Shown here piece after piece: positions 6,293 through 32,233 of a stretch of DNA of 64,000 nucleotides (position 1 is its first letter; every line of letters begins with the position of its first letter). Position numbers and translations under genes: made by a program. The DNA is taken from positions 32,001 to 96,000 of IMG/VR virus record IMGVR_UViG_3300027869_000006, one strand, 5' to 3'. The notes below the pieces were generated by a model. It did no database searches. It saw only the letters and a list, made by a program, of their open reading frames with translations, and was not told the origin of the DNA. This DNA is from a virus.

Positions 6293-7045
6293 ATGTTTAC
6301 AATTGCACGCTACGGTTGGCGTCCCGATGTGCCCGACCAAAGAGATCATCTCTACCGCGCCAAGCCACTGGTAGCACTCCCACCAAGCATCGATATGCGG
6401 GGGATGTGCCCGCCTGTCTACGATCAGGGGCAACTCGGCAGTTGCACGGCGAATGCCATCGCGGGGGCCATTGAGTTCAATCAGATCAAACAGAGCCTCC
6501 CGGAGTTTACCCCGTCACGCCTCTTCATCTACTTCAATGAGCGAGTGATTGAACATACGATCCACAGTGACGCGGGGGCCTCACTGCGGGATGGCATCAA
6601 GACGATTGCGAGTACGGGCGTGTGCGATGAGAAGGAGTGGCCCTATGTGATCCGTAAGTTTGCCAAACGCCCGATCCCTGTGTGCTACACGCTCGCCAAA
6701 ACCGACCTCGTGACCGGCTACACGAGGCTCGACAATACGCAACTTGACCAACTCAAATCGTGCCTGGCTTCGGGCTTTTGCTTCGTATTTGGGTTCACGG
6801 TCTATGAGAGCTTTGAAAGTCAGGTAGTCGCGAGTTCCGGCATCGTGCCTCTCCCCGCGTCCCAGGAGACAGTACTTGGCGGGCATGCTTGTGTGGCGGT
6901 CGGCTATGACGATGCGACCGGTCGGTTTACCGTGCGCAACTCATGGGGCGCGAGTTGGGGCACGGCAGGCTACTTTACCATCCCGTATCAGTATCTGAGC
7001 AGTAGCACACTCGCTGCTGACTTTTGGCAAATAAGCAGCAGCTAG
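6293..7045 (+). CDS. C1A papain-family cysteine peptidase
   Basis: Motifs DQGQLGSCTANA (catalytic Cys), GGHACVAVGYDD (His), VRNSWG (Asn); RBS AGGAG. Confidence 0.92.
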   Translation: MFTIARYGWRPDVPDQRDHLYRAKPLVALPPSIDMRGMCPPVYDQGQLGSCTANAIAGAIEFNQIKQSLPEFTPSRLFIYFNERVIEHTIHSDAGASLRDGIKTIASTGVCDEKEWPYVIRKFAKRPIPVCYTLAKTDLVTGYTRLDNTQLDQLKSCLASGFCFVFGFTVYESFESQVVASSGIVPLPASQETVLGGHACVAVGYDDATGRFTVRNSWGASWGTAGYFTIPYQYLSSSTLAADFWQISSS

Positions 7046-7062: not shown

Positions 7063-10000
7063 ATGACTTCAGTCATACACGGCTGGCCAACAATTGACGA
7101 TAATCCACTGGGGATCACCCACGGCGCATTTACGACGAAGCTGATTAATCCGCAACTGTTCACCGACGCGGTGGCACTCGGCGCGTCGCGTGTGCGGTTG
7201 CAGTTATCCATGATCCTGATCGAGCCGTCCAGTCTTAATTTCAATTGGGCCTATACCGATGATGCCTTCCAGAAGGCCAACGCCGCCGGGTTGCGGATTA
7301 CCTTTCCCTTGCGTGAGTTGAATGTCAAAGGCCCGACCAGCCCATCGTGGGCGGATTATTCCTCTCCGTGCAATCCTGGGGTCTCGTACTGGTTTGGCAA
7401 GGAGAGTAATTGGGCCGACTTTGCTGCAAAGTTTTGCCGCCGCTATAGTGGTGACGGCAACCCAGAAAACGCGATAGCGAATGATGGAAGTAAGCGACCC
7501 ATCTGGGTGGACAACATCGAAGTTGGGAATGAAGATTTCGATACCCACGGCGATCTGGTGAATTGCCGTAACCCCATGCGCTACGTGCTGATGGCGAGAA
7601 CCGTTGTGCCACGCATGCGCCTGGCTGTCTCGGCGGGCGGCGGCGGTTGGACACGAAGAATTGGGACATGGGGATGCTTCTGGCAGGATCAGACGCACAT
7701 CAAAAACGTGTATAACACCCTCGTCAATCCACCCACTGATGCCACCTACAATCCCGGCGGGGATCATACCGATGTACTCACCCTCTTTGATTATGTCAAC
7801 TTCCACAATTATCAGGTACCGGCCTACGGGGGAGGCTCCGCCCCCTATCGCATCGATACGGAACTGGACGACATCCGCGCGATCCTGAACGCCAATGGGC
7901 ATGCCCTCATGCCGATCTGGTGTACCGAGTTTGGGCAAACCGGCCCAGCCGGTGGGGCATCGCCGCAATCGCAGTCAGACTACTACAACACGAGCGGCGG
8001 CCTGGGCGCGCTCCGGACCCTCAAAAATCATGGTGCGCAGCACGCCGATCTCTACACATGCTCCTATGACGCGCCAAATGGTGGCTATCTCGGTGATACC
8101 AAAAGTATTGCCTGTCTCACCAGTGGCGGGACGCCCGTCCGTTTCCAGGCGTTCAGTACGGTGCAGACCTTCCTCAAAGTCGATAACGGCGCATGGGCCG
8201 CACGCGCCATTCCGCTCGGCTTTGGGAGTAGCGGCGGCGGCGGAACGGGCAGGTTTACCCTCACGCCCTCGACACTCTCCTTTGCCGCGACGGTCGGGGC
8301 GGGCAATCCCGCATCGCAACCCATCACCATCGATACTACTGGCACGCTCGACGGTACCTGGGGATTGGCAATCACCGGCGGCGCATGGCTCACGGCCTCC
8401 TCCTCGTCTGGTGCACTGAACGCGGGCGCAAGTACGAGCGTGAACCTCACCGCCGCAACAGGGAGCCTCACCGCCGCAACCTATACCGAGACGGTGACCG
8501 TGACCTTTACGCCAACGGGGCAGTCGCCGCTCACCGCGACCTGTACCGTCACCTTTGTGGTGTCGTCCTCCAGTGGCACGGTCTACTTTGCGAACCCGGG
8601 TGATAACCTCGTGACGAAGATCAACGCGCTAGTGCCTGGCGATACGCTCAACTTGAACGATGGAAGCTATACCGAAACACATTTGATGCTGATCTCTGGC
8701 GTGCATGGGACATCTGCACACCATATCACCATCCAAGCAACCAATGATGGGAAAGCCGTGGTTGACGGAAAGAACACCGGGTCGAATTATCCCTTGTATA
8801 TGGCAGATAGTACCTATGTCGATGTGCAGAGCATTATCTTTCAAAATTCTGGACCTGGCTCCGTCTATGAGTTTTTCGGCGCGACAGGCGGCGGCGTGAG
8901 CAATGTCAACATCCGGCGCTGCTCCGGCTATCACGCGGCTGGTGGCAACGACCACATCTATAACTTACTTGGCCCTGGCCTCAGTAATATCCTGATAGAA
9001 GATGGGGTCGCAAGTGGCCCTGGTCGCTATATGTTTTCGACGTATCACAACTCGACCATCATCTTCAGGCGCTGCTTTGCCTACTGGAATAAAATTACCG
9101 ATACCGCGCAAGAACCACGCTCGTGTTTTAATACCTATGGCAGCGATCATGTGACCTGGGAAAACTGTTATGGCATCAATGCCATCCCCTATCAAGCTGA
9201 AGCCCAACAAAATTATTACTCCGCGACCTTTCAAACATCGGATTCGACGAGCTTGCCAGATACAGCAACACAAGTGCTTGGCTGCATTTTCGTCAACAAC
9301 TACGAAGGCTATTACTTGAACGATCTAGGCGTTGGCAGTACGACCTTCAAGGATTGTTACTTTGAAACGCCGCCACCGGCCAATACGAGCTTCACGAACA
9401 AAGTCTTCGGAGACGGTTTCTATGACAATGGCAACGCGGGTAGCCATACGATCACCAATTGCACGTTTCGCAACTGCGTCACCGGGCTCAATCTCGCCTC
9501 CGGCAGTCAAGCCATCCCAGTGCTGAACAGTGTGTTCGTCGGCAACAAGACGGCCATCACCAATGACAACAGTCATACCTTCTGCGATTTCTTCGATAAC
9601 ACGGCCAACGGTGTCGCGCTCGCTGCCTCTGACCTCTCCGTTGATCCTGGGTACAACATCACGCTCTATGGACGCGGCGGCGCACTCTTTATTCCGAGCA
9701 GTTCGGCACTGGAAGGCGCGGGATCGGGCGGCGCGGATATCGGCGCGAATATTCTCTACCAGTACGTGAATGGGACACTCACGACCACGCCACTCTGGCC
9801 GTGGCCAATGGAAGGCCGGATCATGGCGGAACTCGGGATCAGTCCGACGTTTGCCGCAAATGGGGGCCTCTTCCTCACACTGTCAGGGCTCTATACGGGG
9901 GGTAGCGGTGGAGGTGGAGGAGGGAGCGGAGGTACCCTGACTGGCGCATTCACCGCCCTTGGAGCCGGAACCAGTGTCAATCTGACGGCGCTTGGTACGG

Positions 10001-25382: not shown

Positions 25383-26426
25383 ATGCCTGATTACCCCCTG
25401 GCTGAGGAACACTTTGTACCTCGATCATATATGTTCGATAGCAATGCATGCAAAGTTTTGGTAATTCACAAGACGGGTGGAGACGCAACCCCTGCGGCGA
25501 TCCTTCAAACGTTTCTCACGAACCCGGATCGACCATCGGTCCATTATGGCGTAGGCACAGATGGGAGTATCTGGCAGTACGTCCCTGAAGCACTCGGCGC
25601 GGGCGGGAACTGTTGCGTGGAACCGGGCTATGACCCATTCTGGGCACAATTTAACCCGATGGCTGTTGGGTCATCTTCTGGAACCAACCTGAATACAGTC
25701 ACACTCTCTCTTGAGCATTGCGATGCGGCACTTGACAATAGTACGCCACTTACCCCAACTCAGCAAGATGCGAGCTTCAAACTCATTGCCTACCTGGTCG
25801 CCAAGTATAGCATCCCCCTTTCACACATCAAGGGCCACAATACAATTGACCCACAGAGTCGCGCCCGTTGCCCAGGTAACTACCCCTGGCCCGCGTTATT
25901 TGCCTATCTACAAAATGGAGGGAATATGGCAGGAGTACCAATCGGCTGGCAATACGACCAGGCGACGCAAACATTGACGGACCCCAACGGTGGGAAGGTA
26001 GGTCCACCCTATAGCGCACACGTGTTAGCAAGTAACTGGGACCCGCATAACTTTCTTTGGATCGCCGCCTACCATACCAATCAGCTGGAAGCAGCGAACC
26101 CTGGCCTGGGTGCGGGGACACAAATCATCTTCTATGAGTCCATGCTGTGCGTGCCTGATAATCCCCCAGACCCGAACCTTGCGAACCTGAAGGGAAAAGT
26201 GGTCACGGAATATGTCGGGATTGAAGCGGCCTATGCCCGTAGTCAGTGGACCCGCTATTCGGGAATAGCCCAACAGTTTCAAACACAATTCACAGAGGAG
26301 CAGACAAAAAATACGGCCCTGACTGCCCAAGTCGCACAACTGGAAGCACAGATCGCCGCGCTCTCCCAACCCACGGCGGATGCACAGGCGATTGTGCAGA
26401 TCAAGCAGATTGTGGCGGCGCTATGA
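25383..26426 (+). CDS. Endolysin, N-acetylmuramoyl-L-alanine amidase (Amidase_2) with C-terminal coiled coil
   Basis: VIHKT, SVHY, SLEH, IKGH, CPG zinc-amidase motifs; RBS AAGGAG. Confidence 0.85.
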   Translation: MPDYPLAEEHFVPRSYMFDSNACKVLVIHKTGGDATPAAILQTFLTNPDRPSVHYGVGTDGSIWQYVPEALGAGGNCCVEPGYDPFWAQFNPMAVGSSSGTNLNTVTLSLEHCDAALDNSTPLTPTQQDASFKLIAYLVAKYSIPLSHIKGHNTIDPQSRARCPGNYPWPALFAYLQNGGNMAGVPIGWQYDQATQTLTDPNGGKVGPPYSAHVLASNWDPHNFLWIAAYHTNQLEAANPGLGAGTQIIFYESMLCVPDNPPDPNLANLKGKVVTEYVGIEAAYARSQWTRYSGIAQQFQTQFTEEQTKNTALTAQVAQLEAQIAALSQPTADAQAIVQIKQIVAAL

Positions 26427-26560
26427 AGTGGTTTTTCAGATGGGTCCATCAAGTGATGTCTTTGTTACACAAGAGGCGCAGCTATAGCGAAACGATCCTG
26501 GCTGAGAAGCCGATCCGTTACTATCGACTCGATGGAAGTGACACAACACGTGAGCAATGA
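26423..26560 (+). CDS. Small ORF ending in a truncated LamG-module N-terminus
   Basis: ATGA overlap with the amidase stop; YSETILAEKPIRYYRLD resembles YRTTILADNPLYYNR in 20720..23731. Confidence 0.4.
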   Translation: MKWFFRWVHQVMSLLHKRRSYSETILAEKPIRYYRLDGSDTTREQ

Positions 26561-27275
26561 AGAGTGCAAACTGATTGCATACCAACTCTATGATGGTGAT
26601 CTCCCCATGCAAATCGTTCCGGCACCGCGCAAACGGCAGTGGATGGATCAGACGCCACAGAGTTTTGCGAACCGTTGCCTCCCGCTCTTACTGGGAAATG
26701 CGAGCGGCTGGTGGCTCTTGAACACGCACGAGATACAGGTGACCTGGAACGGCGGCACTGATCTCTCCGCGCTCACCATCGCGGGTCGGGGTAGTTCGGA
26801 GACCGGCTATGCACTGAGCCATTTTGGTAACGGTCTCTTAACTTGGAATATTCCCCTGCTCTTTTCCACGCCCCCTGGATATAATTTGCTGGTACGTGGC
26901 CCTGCAAACTGGCCCAAAGACGGGGCATACGCACTGGACGGGCTTGTGGAGACAGATCACGCTGTGGCGACATGGACCATGAACTGGAAGATGACGCGGC
27001 CTGGCCTGACCGTCACCTTTGCCAAGGGCGAACCGATAGCACAAATCGTGCCACAGAAGCGTGGAGAACTAGAGACATTCACCCCGCAAGTACGGAACAT
27101 CAGAGAGGCACCAGAGTTACAAGCTGCATACAATGCGTGGGCATCTAGTCGCTCAACATTCAATATGGAACTGAAGAGACCAGGGTCAGAGGCAGTGAAG
27201 CGGCAATGGCAAAAGGATTACTTCCAAGCATCCCATCAAACAAAGGTCGCATTGAAGGAGTTCACAACTCCATGA
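26532..27275 (+). CDS. DUF6065 family protein
   Basis: PAPRKRQWMD...FANRCLPL...GW...LLFSTPPGYNL.VRGPAN.PKDGA..LDGLVETD...TMNWKMTRPG. Confidence 0.75.
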   Translation: MEVTQHVSNEECKLIAYQLYDGDLPMQIVPAPRKRQWMDQTPQSFANRCLPLLLGNASGWWLLNTHEIQVTWNGGTDLSALTIAGRGSSETGYALSHFGNGLLTWNIPLLFSTPPGYNLLVRGPANWPKDGAYALDGLVETDHAVATWTMNWKMTRPGLTVTFAKGEPIAQIVPQKRGELETFTPQVRNIREAPELQAAYNAWASSRSTFNMELKRPGSEAVKRQWQKDYFQASHQTKVALKEFTTP

Positions 27276-27311
27276 CATCTCTCTCTCATTTCTTAGACAG
27301 TTGGAGGACAT

Positions 27312-27896
27312 ATGGCAACGACACCGACAAAAACCCCGAAGCAGCAAGCCTCACTCGCAGGCGTCTGGCAGGGCATTGAGGCACCAATCATCGGTATCCT
27401 CCTCTCCCTTGCCGTAGCTATTCAGCAGTATTTTAGTACCCATAGTGCCCCAAATTGGGGAGAACTGGGAATGATCCTGTTCCCGACCGTCATTGTTGGT
27501 ATTGTGCAAGCACTCAAGCAGTTCAATGCAACACTCGGGCAGGCATCAGTTCCCATCGTCACCGTCCCGCCGCCCGCACCGGTTGTCTCACCATCCGACA
27601 TTGCGGCAGCGATACGACAGCAGGTACCAGGACTGGTCATACAACAGCCACCGGCACCACCGTCGTTCATTGCGCCGTCAGTGCCACCAGGAGGATACGA
27701 TACGACGCTGGTCCAACCCCTCTCATTCGCCCCTCTGACCACGCCTGCCCAGCCACAACAACCGTACACGTGGTCACAGCCAGAACCATCCCCGACACTC
27801 ACGACACCTGCGCCAGTAATTACGCCGGTATTGTCACTGCCAAGTACGTTTCCGCAAACACTCGATTTACCAATCGTACGACCACAAATTGAGTAA
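27312..27896 (+). CDS. Holin-like membrane protein with Pro-rich C-terminal tail
   Basis: Two N-terminal TM segments, long Pro/Thr-rich tail; RBS GGAGG; lysis region. Confidence 0.55.
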   Translation: MATTPTKTPKQQASLAGVWQGIEAPIIGILLSLAVAIQQYFSTHSAPNWGELGMILFPTVIVGIVQALKQFNATLGQASVPIVTVPPPAPVVSPSDIAAAIRQQVPGLVIQQPPAPPSFIAPSVPPGGYDTTLVQPLSFAPLTTPAQPQQPYTWSQPEPSPTLTTPAPVITPVLSLPSTFPQTLDLPIVRPQIE

Positions 27897-27897
27897 T

Positions 27898-27935
27898 AAT
27901 AAAGGGTACTACATCTGCATGTAGTACCCTTTATT
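27898..27935. terminator. Bidirectional terminator-like hairpin
   Basis: Perfect 17-bp inverted repeat AATAAAGGGTACTACAT-CTGC-ATGTAGTACCCTTTATT between convergent units. Confidence 0.8.
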
Positions 27936-27936
27936 C

Positions 27937-28129
27937 ATCCCATACCATACCGCATCCCGCCGGACTGCACCCCACCCAGCCTTGCCAGACATTACCCCGC
28001 ATCGCCACGCCTTACCCCACCGAACTACACCTTACCAACCAGACCATGCCGAACCCGACCGGACCACGCTATACCGTACCTTACCTTACTGAACCCAGCC
28101 AAGCCGGACCTCACCATACCTACCGTGCC
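27937..28129 (-). repeat. (GGY-NN) pentamer array 1, 39 units; putative guide RNA locus
   Basis: Minus strand GGC AC GGT A GGT AT GGT GA GGT CC GGC TT...; 31/39 triplets are exact GGY and the rest are one mismatch away; two 4-nt phase slips; starts 1 nt after a stop codon and ends at the terminator. Confidence 0.9.
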
Positions 28130-28130
28130 A

Positions 28131-28349
28131 TTAAGCGTATCGTGTTTGGTCTGTCTCCCAGTTCACTAAACGTACAGGTGTCACATCTAAGTCTGTGATA
28201 GGAATGCCATACTTTTCTTCAGCTAAACTCAGTCCTTCCTGAGCATCACTAGCGGTTATCTCACCCACTATAGGCACCTGCTGCTTTCTTAGCTTGGCAT
28301 GCACGGTAGTGTCATGTCCCTTATACCAAACATCGAACCTATGCAACAT
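28131..28349 (-). CDS. Small hypothetical protein (72 aa) translationally coupled to the Cas7-like gene
   Basis: TAATG stop/start overlap at 28347-28351; MLHRFDVWYKGHD... Confidence 0.65.
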   Translation of the reverse strand: MLHRFDVWYKGHDTTVHAKLRKQQVPIVGEITASDAQEGLSLAEEKYGIPITDLDVTPVRLVNWETDQTRYA

Positions 28350-28897
28350 TACTTCACCTTTTCCCATGACACAAGAGCAAATCTCCCATACGGCCCTTTC
28401 TTTGCAGGACGGAAGTCACCAATGCCAACAAGTCGCCCTGCATCGGTGAGTATGTCACGGATAAGACGTTCACCAACTAGATCGGTATCAATCTGAACAT
28501 CAAACTCCATATTCCACTCATCGAACATTGGCCTGTGGCGTAGAATACGCCCCCCAGTCGCTTTAATGACAACAGCCCGTGAGTCCACATGCCATTCCCC
28601 TACCAGAGGAATTTCAAATGGGCTAACATAGACCCCTGCCGCTACATCAGTTGTCGCAGCCCTCCGTCCAATTTTGTGTCGTGATGCTGCTGCAATCATT
28701 GACTGCCGAATATTCTCAGCCGGATAGAATGGGCTATGTTCATTGGTATACAGGCGACTTGCCGCATCTTCATGAGGAGCCGGATATTCTTTCCGACCAT
28801 GTGTTCCTGAAGTTGCTTCCTCTGCCGCTGCCTCATGAAAACGATTCACGATGAGCGGCGTCAAACTCGTAATGTTGACCTTGTACGTTACAATCAT
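28349..28897 (-). CDS. Solo RAMP/Cas7-like protein (Vipr-like), 182 aa
   Basis: RAMP hallmarks: first strand YKVNITSLTPL, YPAENIRQSM helix, WNMEFDVQID strand, C-terminal Gly-rich loop AGRLVGIGDFRPAKKGPYGRF; RBS AAAGGA before ATG 28897. Confidence 0.8.
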   Translation of the reverse strand: MIVTYKVNITSLTPLIVNRFHEAAAEEATSGTHGRKEYPAPHEDAASRLYTNEHSPFYPAENIRQSMIAAASRHKIGRRAATTDVAAGVYVSPFEIPLVGEWHVDSRAVVIKATGGRILRHRPMFDEWNMEFDVQIDTDLVGERLIRDILTDAGRLVGIGDFRPAKKGPYGRFALVSWEKVK

Positions 28898-28926
28898 GTG
28901 TGTTATCCTTTCTGTGTGAGTAACTT

Positions 28927-28962
28927 GTGTGGTGCCCTGCCCCAGTGGTAGGGCTACCACGC
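28927..28962. promoter_or_regulatory. GC-rich hairpin between array 2 and the Cas7-like gene
   Basis: GTGTGGT-GCCCTGCC-CCAGT-GGTAGGGC-T-ACCACGC imperfect inverted repeat at the 3' end of array 2 (minus strand). Confidence 0.55.
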
Positions 28963-28977
28963 GAAACAAAATGAACA

Positions 28978-29370
28978 AAACCATACCAGACCGGACCTCG
29001 CCAAACCCGGCCTTGCCAGACCGGGCCTTGCCAGACCGGGCCAAACCCGACTACACTAGACCTCATCATGCCACACCTCCCATACCATACCCATCCTTAC
29101 CGAACTGCGCCAGACCGCAACGTACCAGACCGCGGCAAGCCGGGCCGGACCCAACCTAACCTATTCCTCAGCAAACCATGCTATACCCCACCTGACCGTA
29201 GCACTCCTTCCAAACCGCACCATACCCAACCAAGCAGGACCCCGCGTCACCGCACCTGATCGGGCCATACCCCACCTGACCAAGCCGTGCCTACCTTGCC
29301 GCACCAAACCTCACCTCACTCAGTCTTGCCTCGCTGGACCTAGTCGCACCGAACCTGACCTTGCCGTGCC
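28978..29370 (-). repeat. (GGY-NN) pentamer array 2, 79 units; putative guide RNA locus
   Basis: 58/79 triplets are exact GGY and the rest are one mismatch away; phase slips at 29078-81, 29162-67, 29208-11, 29292-95. Confidence 0.9.
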
Positions 29371-30005
29371 ATAATCCTGCTATAGGCCAATTTCACGCAG
29401 AACTCAACGTCATTCCATACCTGGGAGCCAGTGAAGCGAAGAACGTACCAGCCTTGATCTTCAATCGTATGCTGTCGCATATAGTCTCTATTTCGGTCTC
29501 TCTTGTGACTATGGAACGCTTGCCCATCAAGTTCGATTACTATCTTTGCTTCAACATGGGCAAAGTCTACACGATACTTACTAATCCGATGCTGTCGCTC
29601 AAGAGGGATATCTGGATACAGCAGGCACCATGCTTCATAAAAGGCTTCCTCGATGGGACTTCCATTCTTGACGGATTGCTGAATTTCCCGTAAACGATTA
29701 CGAGCCTCATTAAGTGCAGCCTCACGTTGTTGATTAGCAAGTCGCAAGGCTTCTACTCGCTCTGCTTCTAGTGCTTGACGACGTTCTAGGGCCTGCTCTC
29801 GCTTCTCCCGAATGGTTGCTACTTCAATCTCTCTCTGGACAGATTGCTGATGCTCATTCGCACGACGCTTCAACTCCCTAGCTTCCTGAATCATACTAGC
29901 TTTCTCTGCCGCAAGTTGACGTTGTATGGCAAGTTCATGCTCTCTGTCAGCTTGAAGTTTTCGTTGTTGTTCTTGATAGTCGTTGAATGCTTGCCAGTCC
30001 ATCAT
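29340..30005 (-). CDS. Coiled-coil + DUF559/Vsr-like (PD-D/ExK) endonuclease
   Basis: SPIEEAFY...ERQHRISKYRVDF...IVIELDGQAFH...RNRDY.RQ..IEDQGWYVLRFTGSQV. Confidence 0.85.
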   Translation of the reverse strand: MMDWQAFNDYQEQQRKLQADREHELAIQRQLAAEKASMIQEARELKRRANEHQQSVQREIEVATIREKREQALERRQALEAERVEALRLANQQREAALNEARNRLREIQQSVKNGSPIEEAFYEAWCLLYPDIPLERQHRISKYRVDFAHVEAKIVIELDGQAFHSHKRDRNRDYMRQHTIEDQGWYVLRFTGSQVWNDVEFCVKLAYSRIMARQGQVRCD

Positions 30006-30007
30006 GC

Positions 30008-30181
30008 TTATTGTTCTCGTTTTGTAGGCTTTTGCTGTTTCTGTTGTACTCGTTCTAATTCTTGGTTCGCTAAACGGTCAAGAAGACTCACGATACTCTC
30101 CCCTGTGATGGCATGAAGCATACGCAAGGTGGTAAGTGTCCTTGTCCAGATGCGAGTTGTTTTGTAGTCATCGGTAGCCAT
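30008..30181 (-). CDS. Small RHH-like DNA-binding protein (57 aa, absent from the ORF track)
   Basis: Hand translation MATDDYKTTRIWTRTLTTLRMLHAITGESIVSLLDRLANQELERVQQKQQKPTKREQ; strand-helix-G.S-helix pattern. Confidence 0.6.
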   Translation of the reverse strand: MATDDYKTTRIWTRTLTTLRMLHAITGESIVSLLDRLANQELERVQQKQQKPTKREQ

Positions 30182-30187
30182 GAAGTT

Positions 30188-30216
30188 ATTTTACTACAAA
30201 CAAGTGTTCTTGTCAA
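30188..30216 (-). promoter_or_regulatory. sigma70 promoter of the array/Cas7-like cassette (leaderless)
   Basis: TTGACA-17nt-TAAAAT-6nt-ATG(30181). Confidence 0.75.
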
Positions 30217-30276
30217 GAGGAAAAGAAGACGCCCTTGACACAAGCATATACTAAGAGCAGAAGGGGGAATTTTTCT

Positions 30277-30837
30277 TTGGAACGCGGGTCCGTTATTCTT
30301 TTTGAGAAGGATGGCAGTCTCTTCAATTGGCTCATCACGAAAGCAACTCATGGTCCCTATGTCCATGTGGAAATTTGCCTGGGCGAGGAACGCCTGATCG
30401 GTGCTCACGGTAACCGTCGCGGCATCTATGAGCGTGATTGGGCCGATGCACCTTCGTTAGTGACGGAGGTCTCTCTCTCCCCCTATGCCGATGAAGAGCA
30501 CATCGAGCAGGCCCTTACCTGGGCGCAAGAGCAACAGGGGCATCCCTATGGATGGTGGGATATCGCCAGTCAGTCCATCAAGTTCTTGTGGCCAACGACA
30601 CCGCTCCGGTTCAGCAAGTCAGACGCATGGGGGTGTGCAGACTATGTGACCCGCTATCTGATACAAGCAGGGGTGGCCTTGCCAGAAGACTTCATGGACC
30701 CTGGGAAAAACTCGCCCAACGATATTGGACGGTTGTTCCATCTCGTTCCACAACGGCCACAACGCATCAGAAAACGGGAGAGAGAGTTGAGGAAAGGTCA
30801 TGCCATTGCCGCATTTGCCGCCTCCAGACGAGGATGA
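30277..30837 (+). CDS. Permuted papain-like (YaeF/YiiX, NlpC/P60 superfamily) amidase
   Basis: G.VILF...THGPYVHVEI (His first)...GHPYGW...WGCADYV (Cys later); TTG start 7 nt after AAGGGGGAA. Confidence 0.7.
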   Translation: MERGSVILFEKDGSLFNWLITKATHGPYVHVEICLGEERLIGAHGNRRGIYERDWADAPSLVTEVSLSPYADEEHIEQALTWAQEQQGHPYGWWDIASQSIKFLWPTTPLRFSKSDAWGCADYVTRYLIQAGVALPEDFMDPGKNSPNDIGRLFHLVPQRPQRIRKRERELRKGHAIAAFAASRRG

Positions 30838-31036
30838 CATCTATCTCACATCGGCGGAACTCGAGCAATTACTGGCCACGACCAAAGAAGTGGAGCAATT
30901 GCAAGAGGGTAATCCGACCGTCACGCAGGCACTTGCCGCCGATAGACAGCGCCGCAAACTCTTACGTCGTCTGCTCCACGGTGTTGCCAGGCAATGGCGT
31001 CACACGCTATCAAGTACCGAGCCAGGAAAGGACTAA
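30800..31036 (+). CDS. Hypothetical protein
   Basis: ORF with RBS, in an operon context. Confidence 0.5.
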   Translation: MPLPHLPPPDEDDIYLTSAELEQLLATTKEVEQLQEGNPTVTQALAADRQRRKLLRRLLHGVARQWRHTLSSTEPGKD

Positions 31037-31795: not shown

Positions 31796-32233
31796 TTAGA
31801 CTCCTTCCTGAGCAGGTGCTACTTCATCATTCAGTAGTTCAATACCTGCTTGTACGTATGCCTCTATCCAAGCAACTTCACGCCATCTAGGATTGACACC
31901 TTCATCGACAACTTCTAACGTTAACATCCAAGGAAGCATATGGGCATCTAAAATGGCTTGTATCCTAGCATGCTTGCGTTGATTATTATCAGAGAGCAAG
32001 AGGTGTTGCTTAAAACGAAGATAGAGGTTATTCGTCAATCCGATGTAGAAAACTTGATGGTCTCTTGGGTCAATGATCCCATAAATCACAGTGACATTTT
32101 CTTGGTAATATGCCCCTGTATTACCAGTAGATGCTATGCGACTATTGACACGATCCGATTTGTGACCATCATAGAAGGAAAGTTTTTTAATGGGGTGCTT
32201 GCCATCCTGGGCATGAGGTGATAGAGTTGTCAC
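31796..32233 (-). CDS. GIY-YIG-like nuclease domain protein
   Basis: VIYGIIDPRD..VFYIGLT..L..RF.QH...REVAWI...LLN; start uncertain. Confidence 0.7.
   Translation of the reverse strand: MTTLSPHAQDGKHPIKKLSFYDGHKSDRVNSRIASTGNTGAYYQENVTVIYGIIDPRDHQVFYIGLTNNLYLRFKQHLLLSDNNQRKHARIQAILDAHMLPWMLTLEVVDEGVNPRWREVAWIEAYVQAGIELLNDEVAPAQEGV

Follow-up and report, generated by a model that had tools for sequence, protein, structure and literature searches.

A cassette at 27940-29373 in the genome of an uncultivated phage is a VIPR system, in which a Vipr RAMP protein is flanked by probably staggered YNNGG vrRNA arrays. One of its guides (27940-28039) is plausibly directed at a rival's or relative's allele of the neighbouring lysis-cluster gene, a reading that, judged from sequence, has somewhat better than even chances. 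The resemblance between this guide and the gene is seen at the amino-acid level, where it is probably beyond chance, and it is a single event in the genome. Several of the differences between guide and resident gene are switches between the codon families of serine and of leucine, which may reflect selected recoding, ordinary divergence or chance. The window analysed is a 64,000-nt stretch covering positions 32,001 to 96,000 of the 109.8-kb IMG/VR virus record IMGVR_UViG_3300027869_000006, and all coordinates refer to it unless another locus is named.

Layout of the locus

The genes to the left of the cassette lie on the plus strand and comprise an Amidase_2 endolysin, a DUF6065 gene and, last in order, a 194-aa lysis-cluster ORF (27312..27896), labelled holin-like, in which two predicted membrane helices are followed by a Pro-rich tail. 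This ORF has no Pfam or PADLOC match, and the ORFan status of the membrane protein at 27312-27896 contrasts with its conventional endolysin neighbourhood. A perfect 17-bp hairpin (27898..27935, both strands) is located between the stop codons of the lysis-cluster gene and array 1. Its folding energy is -22.8 kcal/mol on the plus strand and -24.8 kcal/mol on the minus strand, with a z of about -7, and T-rich tracts are found downstream of it on both strands; it is probably a terminator in both directions.

From about 27935 to 29373 the plus strand keeps a strict five-base rhythm, CC-NN-R, equivalent to Y-NN-GG on the minus strand. This rhythm forms two arrays which flank two minus-strand genes. 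The first gene, vipr (28349..28897), encodes a 182-aa minimal RAMP or Cas7-like protein, recognised by profile match and predicted fold. The second is a small ORF (28131..28367, minus strand) that encodes 78 aa, or 72 aa if translation starts at the ATG at 28349, and it may be an accessory (vap) gene. The vipr stop codon and the ATG of the small ORF overlap as TAATG (28347-28351), an arrangement which suggests translational coupling of vipr with the 72-aa protein. The small ORF belongs to no family in Pfam or PADLOC, has no relatives in the other 73 Vipr loci and obtains uninformative protein-atlas scores, all below 0.9.

Directly upstream of array 2 is a DUF559 / REase_MTES_1575 endonuclease-like gene (29340..30005, minus strand); the first units of the array double as its last codons (29340-29373), so that gene and guide overlap. 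Of the related loci compared, only the two closest, L026 and L027, have a DUF559 homologue upstream of vipr. A scan of 26000-31000 against Rfam returned no family.

Identity of the cassette

Vipr has been described as a small RAMP protein that polymerises on vrRNAs built of GGY/NN pentamers, sequestering each GGY (bioRxiv 10.64898/2026.04.26.720920; 10.64898/2026.04.26.720927). [quoted passage not shown] Natural targets include competing phages, satellites and other VIPR systems (bioRxiv 10.64898/2026.04.26.720920; 10.64898/2026.04.26.720927; 10.64898/2026.10.15.759431). These targets match at least 80% of NN units and silencing is abolished when NN pairing is disturbed; none of the published guides matches its own contig at 80% or above (bioRxiv 10.64898/2026.04.26.720920; 10.64898/2026.04.26.720927).

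The present protein falls within this family. A profile of 34 Vipr homologues matches PDB entry 36pp_D, "SUSP1 Vipr protein", with an E value of 1.3e-14, and the single protein sequence finds nothing in Pfam or PADLOC. The AlphaFold2 model (pLDDT 86.9) has Csm3/Cas7 as its best structural matches in Foldseek (E about 1e-7), and the G-rich loop carries the invariant residues G156, G160, G162, D163, R165, P166, G170 and G173. YNNGG arrays were present on both sides of the Vipr homologue in all eight of the first eight related viral loci, and 165 guides could be parsed from 47 of 73 further related loci together with the present genome. A search of genome contigs for Vipr found only distant relatives, in candidate-phyla-radiation genomes, and the closest Vipr relative lies on a contig labelled Ktedonobacteraceae by one source.

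The initial annotation had proposed that the guide reads NNx-NNx targets and is blind to wobble mutations. This agrees with the published "1 nt skip rule", and the Vipr protein, the flanking YNNGG arrays and the lack of a self-match at 80% or above place the locus among VIPR systems. The gapped NNx code was thus deduced correctly, yet it had already been published in 2026 and is not new here. Lower self-match, targeting of rival phages and alignment of the skip with the wobble position are likewise all contained in the three 2026 preprints (bioRxiv 10.64898/2026.04.26.720920; 10.64898/2026.04.26.720927; 10.64898/2026.10.15.759431).

Arrays and guides

The two arrays contain seven in-phase guides of 7-20 units each, all on the vipr strand, and the in-phase runs are separated by phase slips of exactly -1, seen as 4-base units. 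In array 1, the guide resembling the lysis-cluster gene consists of 20 YNNGG units (27940..28039, minus strand) and is bounded by the 4-base unit 28037-28040, which would correspond to a 1-nt overlap (staggered) junction. The second guide of array 1 is an in-phase run of 17 units (28039..28123, minus strand), for which neither a target nor a self-resemblance was found. Array 2 (28981..29373, minus strand) holds five in-phase guides at 28981-29080, 29080-29164, 29166-29200, 29210-29294 and 29294-29373; its junctions are a shared base at 29080 and at 29294, a single base at 29165 and a 9-base gap at 29201-29209. The legend to fig. S18 of one preprint presents staggered arrays as neighbouring vrRNAs that overlap by 1 nt (bioRxiv 10.64898/2026.04.26.720920). 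The 4-base junction units would fit such arrays, and the guide boundaries given here are putative ones read from the DNA.

The guide of array 2 nearest to vipr is repetitive, a three-unit block being repeated about 3.8 times with a 15-nt period (28986-29042, a sub-repeat detected by TRF). Such a guide would read a target with a 9-base period, for example one encoding a Gly-(Leu/Phe)-(Ser/Arg) tripeptide repeat, and no collagen-like or other tripeptide repeat matching it is present in the phage's own genome. All 16 NN dinucleotides are used in the guides. Among the target-sense dinucleotides of the seven guides (27940-29373), CT is found in none of 105, although 5.9% of the units in the 126 distinct guides of the clade carry the corresponding guide dinucleotide and CTN is the usual Leu codon of this phage. 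The absence of CT may be a signal of self-avoidance or of codon usage, or it may be a sampling effect. In addition, the RNA 3' ends of many guides are alike (G000, G001-G005 and many of L026-L098), with CAAGG as the common unit, often repeated, and TATGG TATGG in the window, which hints at a conserved terminal element replacing the structured tail of type II vrRNAs.

A different decoding, in which the units serve as five-base "codons" (NNR + CC), was also considered. It gives an array 1 peptide identical to the gene tail at 9 of 13 residues, and array 2 then contains stop codons; this decoding was rejected.

Resemblance of a guide to the lysis-cluster gene

The stretch 27972-28036 consists of 13 five-base units in the register NN-R-CC, the dinucleotides of which are cc ca tt ag tt cc tc ac tt cc ga ac tt; they equal RNA units 2-14 of the guide at 27940..28039. 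The initial annotation had read them as codon positions 1-2 and compared them with the peptide PVLSLPSTFPQTL, encoded by a resident 13-codon site (27825..27863, plus strand) in the frame of the 194-aa ORF. Both the dinucleotides and the peptide are located exactly as it had claimed, and its counts were reproduced, with 7 of 13 dinucleotides equal to codon positions 1-2 and 11 of 13 residues compatible. The resemblance is found in the true reading frame of the gene, with the skipped base on the wobble position, and the resident site is situated about 100-200 bases from the guide.

The two levels of comparison differ in weight. For DNA, 27825-27863 is the only site on either strand of the window to reach 7 of 13, eight sites reach 6, and about one site with 7 would be expected per window from the tail of the distribution. 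For amino acids, with each dinucleotide taken as codon positions 1-2, the 11 compatible residues of 13 compare with a runner-up of 7 in the six frames of the window.

Six units mismatch (guide/resident), namely CA/GTA, AG/TCA, TT/CTG, TC/AGT, GA/CAA and TT/CTC. Four of these are, as the initial annotation had stated, codon-family switches at Ser, Leu, Ser and Leu, and inspection of the pairs found no mismatch that G-U type pairing could rescue. Beyond the 13 units the likeness ends. The whole guide matches the resident gene in 7 of 20 units, or 20 of 40 informative bases; the first 7 guide units match none of the gene, and their alignment needs a one-codon gap. By the published 80% threshold the resident lysis-cluster gene is therefore no VIPR target on pairing grounds, since both values lie well below it. 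Across the phage's own 109.8-kb genome, the best NN match of any guide ranges from 5/9 to 9/20, which is the level of shuffled guides, and none exceeds 50%.

Statistical weight of the match

The initial annotation had called for a permutation test against the proteome. Local match scores (+1 for a match, -1 for a mismatch) were calculated between the guide and the six-frame translation of the whole 109.8-kb genome, and the observed score of 9 was reached by 33 of 40,418 shuffles of the guide's own 20 dinucleotides (p = 8e-4). Correction for seven guides gives a p of about 6e-3, and about 1e-2 when antisense reading is also allowed; the value would be far smaller if the search space were the flanking genes only. 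In a separate test in which all of array 1 was shuffled, none of 300 shuffles reached the observed match. The other six guides of the genome score 5-6, which is chance level, and 155 further real guide-by-contig comparisons gave a maximum score of 7. Given the seven exact units and the dinucleotide make-up of the guide, four or more compatible units among the six mismatches have a probability of about 1e-4.

One alternative is that the guide has an unrelated target and that its dinucleotides, rich in CC, TT, AC and TC, align by luck with a low-complexity tail rich in Pro, Leu, Ser and Thr. Coincidence of this kind is on the unlikely side, though it is to be reckoned with. The match is singular, involving one of the seven guides in the genome; the corrected p is only about 1e-2 for a finding drawn from a scan of very many windows; and TT is read permissively, as Leu or Phe. 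To this are added the chance expectation of about one DNA-level site of 7/13 per window and databases in which neither a target allele nor an orthologue appears. On the other hand, composition-preserving shuffles reach the score in just 33 of 40,418 cases, four of six mismatches are silent where a probability of about 1e-4 applies, the site lies in the true frame at a short distance from the guide, and partial resemblance to nearby genes is commoner than expected in other loci, as described below.

Similar resemblances in other Vipr loci

Each of the 165 guides, from the 73 related loci and the present genome, was scored against the locus that carries it, in sense and in antisense with wobble alignment. 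The comparison stayed within 6 kb in the other loci, and closeness between guide and gene is thus established for the present genome only. Guides of four other Vipr loci resemble genes near their own cassette at a sub-threshold level; these come from three independent phage groups, one of them borderline, and the skipped base of the partial matches falls on the wobble position.

In L075, a guide of 15 units just downstream of vipr (6568-6642) matches 10 of 15 units at a site (7256-7300) over the VHLVSTDPPYGVK motif of a ParB-N6_N4 DNA methylase gene in the same phage, in antisense and with the skip on the wobble position (p = 3e-4). The guide decodes as DPPY, the catalytic motif, and then Asn or Lys; the resident methylase has Gly in this place. 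One guide shared by the three near-identical phages L035, L037 and L038 matches 8 of 12 early codons of their own vipr, and 9 of 12 on the vipr of L049 and L050 (p = 5e-4). The guide of L048 (1188-1252) matches its own downstream gene (site 1566-1604) in 8 of 13 units and shows in addition an Arg switch between AG and CG (AGR/CGN), again in antisense with the skip on the wobble position (p = 1.2e-3). Finally, a 40-unit run of the L035 type has, over 16 codons of its own adjacent recombinase-like gene, 10 exact units with one Leu and one Ser switch (p = 3e-3); the L035-type regions are L035:3370-3429 and L035:4785-4984. A further candidate, an L082-type guide compared with its own YqaJ-like gene, gave p = 0.04 and was left out of the count.

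At p of 1.2e-3 or below, about 0.4 results would be expected by chance, compared with three independent ones seen besides the window. When the five guide-gene cases are pooled, 11 Ser/Leu/Arg positions are compatible, of which 8 are family-switched and 3 exact. This excess is suggestive; the sites are few, and some of the alignments may be partly due to chance.

Searches for relatives and for a target

Overall, about 15 billion proteins were covered and no relative of the lysis-cluster protein was found among them. A word search of 5.8 billion clustered proteins with the whole protein and with the tail only returned only the protein itself, exhaustive phmmer against 1.84 billion representatives returned no relative, and there was no orthologue in IMG/VR, nor in GenBank phages (tblastn). 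Positional relatives of the gene, sought through its DUF6065 neighbour, were likewise absent.

The search of phage and metagenome databases with the gapped pattern, which the initial annotation had suggested, came out negative. IMG/VR contains no exact match to the 13-unit pattern, and sub-patterns of it found only chance matches, the large collections having been scanned with exact sub-patterns only. Sub-patterns of 9 and 10 units gave four matches, L010-L013 (three from IMG/VR and one from a metagenome). These were rejected as targets, with only 9-11 of 20 units matching, none of them beyond the queried part, and with frames broken by nearby stop codons. Neither a degenerate pattern for the peptide itself nor the upstream half of the guide found a match. 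Among sequencing runs, one soil-metagenome DNA run, the probable source, carries the sequence and no RNA run does; the contigs of the DNA run contain no variant strain or cassette-free form. No cross-targeting at 80% or above was detected among the 74 related sequences, or between the present genome and the whole contigs G001-G005.

Proposed function and origin of the codon switches

In the favoured explanation, vrRNAs would be transcribed from the minus strand and the Vipr RAMP protein would polymerise on them. Each Vipr protomer would hold one GGY, leaving two free NN bases to pair with double-stranded DNA while the third target base is skipped, and binding of the Vipr-guide complex would silence transcription. 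The terminator-side guide (27940-28039) would be aimed at a competing phage's variant of the 3' end of the lysis-cluster gene. The resident copy would then be a homologue of the target, encoding nearly the same peptide and left unbound at 7 of 20 units. The pairing rule and the silencing mechanism are taken from the literature, and the existence of the target allele is a deduction. The initial annotation had likewise proposed a guide aimed at a relative's allele; the unusual amino-acid-level match and the four similar loci speak for this part of its proposal, whereas the databases searched yielded neither an orthologue nor a target.

Codon usage provides a further view of the candidate target. 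In this phage 81% of the codons for Leu are CTN, and Ser is drawn freely from either family. The resident codons CTG, CTC, TCA and AGT are therefore ordinary ones, and TT at the three Leu sites would suggest, given the dominance of CTN here, that the target phage differs in codon usage or that Phe occupies those sites. Neutral steps would hardly produce two Ser family switches within 13 codons in a fast-evolving tail, and this counts against the favoured explanation.

The initial annotation had gone further, holding that this phage avoids self-targeting by recoding. Avoidance itself stands, in that the resident gene is matched well below 80%; the recoding part does not separate from ordinary divergence. 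Stated in full, selection would have moved Ser and Leu codons of the resident allele from one of their two families to the other, the protein being kept while guide binding was escaped or never suffered; such switching would be the single silent loophole left by a code blind to wobble bases. This account is rather improbable, although several observations suit it. Ser/Leu family switches make up four of the six mismatches and would not be rescued by G-U type wobble pairing, 8 of 11 compatible Ser/Leu/Arg positions are switched across the five cases of the clade, and conservation of 11 of 13 residues together with two Ser switches is unexpected under slow neutral drift; codon-family escape is moreover unmentioned in the three VIPR preprints. 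Against it, the odd codons would stand on the target side, the resident ones being ordinary, which a rival with other codon usage fits equally well. Furthermore, chance may have produced some of the five alignments, where a switched position is then as likely as an exact one, and an ORFan tail is not obviously under tight amino-acid constraint.

That the guide instead acts on the resident gene, with weak partial binding of its 3' end tuning the timing of lysis, would suit the nearness of guide and site and the place of the gene in the lysis cluster, but is very improbable with 7 of 20 units matching, none of the first 7 among them, and with published silencing abolished by disturbed NN pairing and natural targets at 80% or above.

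Comparison with known systems

The cassette shares with the described VIPR systems a phage-borne location, a small RAMP protein related to SUSP1 Vipr and GGY/NN pentamers on both sides (bioRxiv 10.64898/2026.04.26.720920; 10.64898/2026.04.26.720927). The lack of any self-match of at least 80% and the in-frame resemblance with its skip on the wobble position are also in common with the systems of those two preprints. Unlike the type II VIPR studied so far, the present Vipr is only distantly related and its long, probably staggered arrays have no recognisable structured 3' tail. A DUF559 endonuclease-like gene upstream in the present sub-clade also sets it apart from the studied systems, as does the lack of a natural target among the sequences searched here.

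In SUSP1-family phages, guides are aimed at relatives' vipr, vrRNAs and satellites, from which the self copies differ simply through greater divergence (bioRxiv 10.64898/2026.10.15.759431). The candidate relationship described here is similar, in that guides there address relatives' versions of a phage's own elements with a lower self-match, and the targeting of early vipr codons recalls the L035-type guide. It is different in that a lysis-cluster gene is the candidate target and silent Ser/Leu switches make up most of what distinguishes the self copy. Escape from VIPR is said in the same preprint to require changes at amino-acid-determining positions, and Ser/Leu codon-family switches are not discussed there (bioRxiv 10.64898/2026.10.15.759431).

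Vipr also has the same fold as the Cas7 backbone proteins of class 1 CRISPR systems (Csm3, Cmr4, Cas7), and in both a thumb periodically interrupts guide-target pairing. In VIPR, by contrast, each subunit takes five guide bases, two of which pair, and every third target base is skipped, as against every sixth. The present locus, unlike class 1 CRISPR, has neither CRISPR repeats nor nearby cas genes.

The free-standing homing endonuclease genes of T-even phages, and marker exclusion, provide a looser parallel. There, a mobile cassette attacks the cassette-free neighbouring allele when relatives co-infect, and sequence differences make the allele that flanks the cassette itself resistant. In the present sub-clade the cassette also includes an endonuclease-like gene, but the parallel is an analogy only, and cleavage, homing or a link between the DUF559 protein and the guides would be hypothetical here. 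That guide and gene lie close together, and that an endonuclease-like gene is present, would suit a linkage or marker-exclusion logic, which is speculation.

Significance

The locus adds a well-supported VIPR system in an uncultivated soil phage and offers a concrete example of how a phage may separate self from non-self under the VIPR code. Several loci of the clade likewise carry guides that are sub-threshold look-alikes of genes near their cassette. A wider proposal, which at present appears quite doubtful, is that switching between the codon families of Ser, Leu and Arg is a silent way out of the VIPR code, by which the phage would keep its own copy immune to a guide aimed at rivals, with guide and immune allele side by side and inseparable by recombination. 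If true, this Ser/Leu/Arg loophole would qualify the published claim that escape needs amino-acid changes. It would also affect the design of VIPR-based silencing tools, for which silent escape would be easiest at targets rich in these three residues. The linkage of guide and immune allele would then be comparable to a toxin with its antidote or to marker exclusion, and might favour a joint spread of the cassette and the allele beside it.
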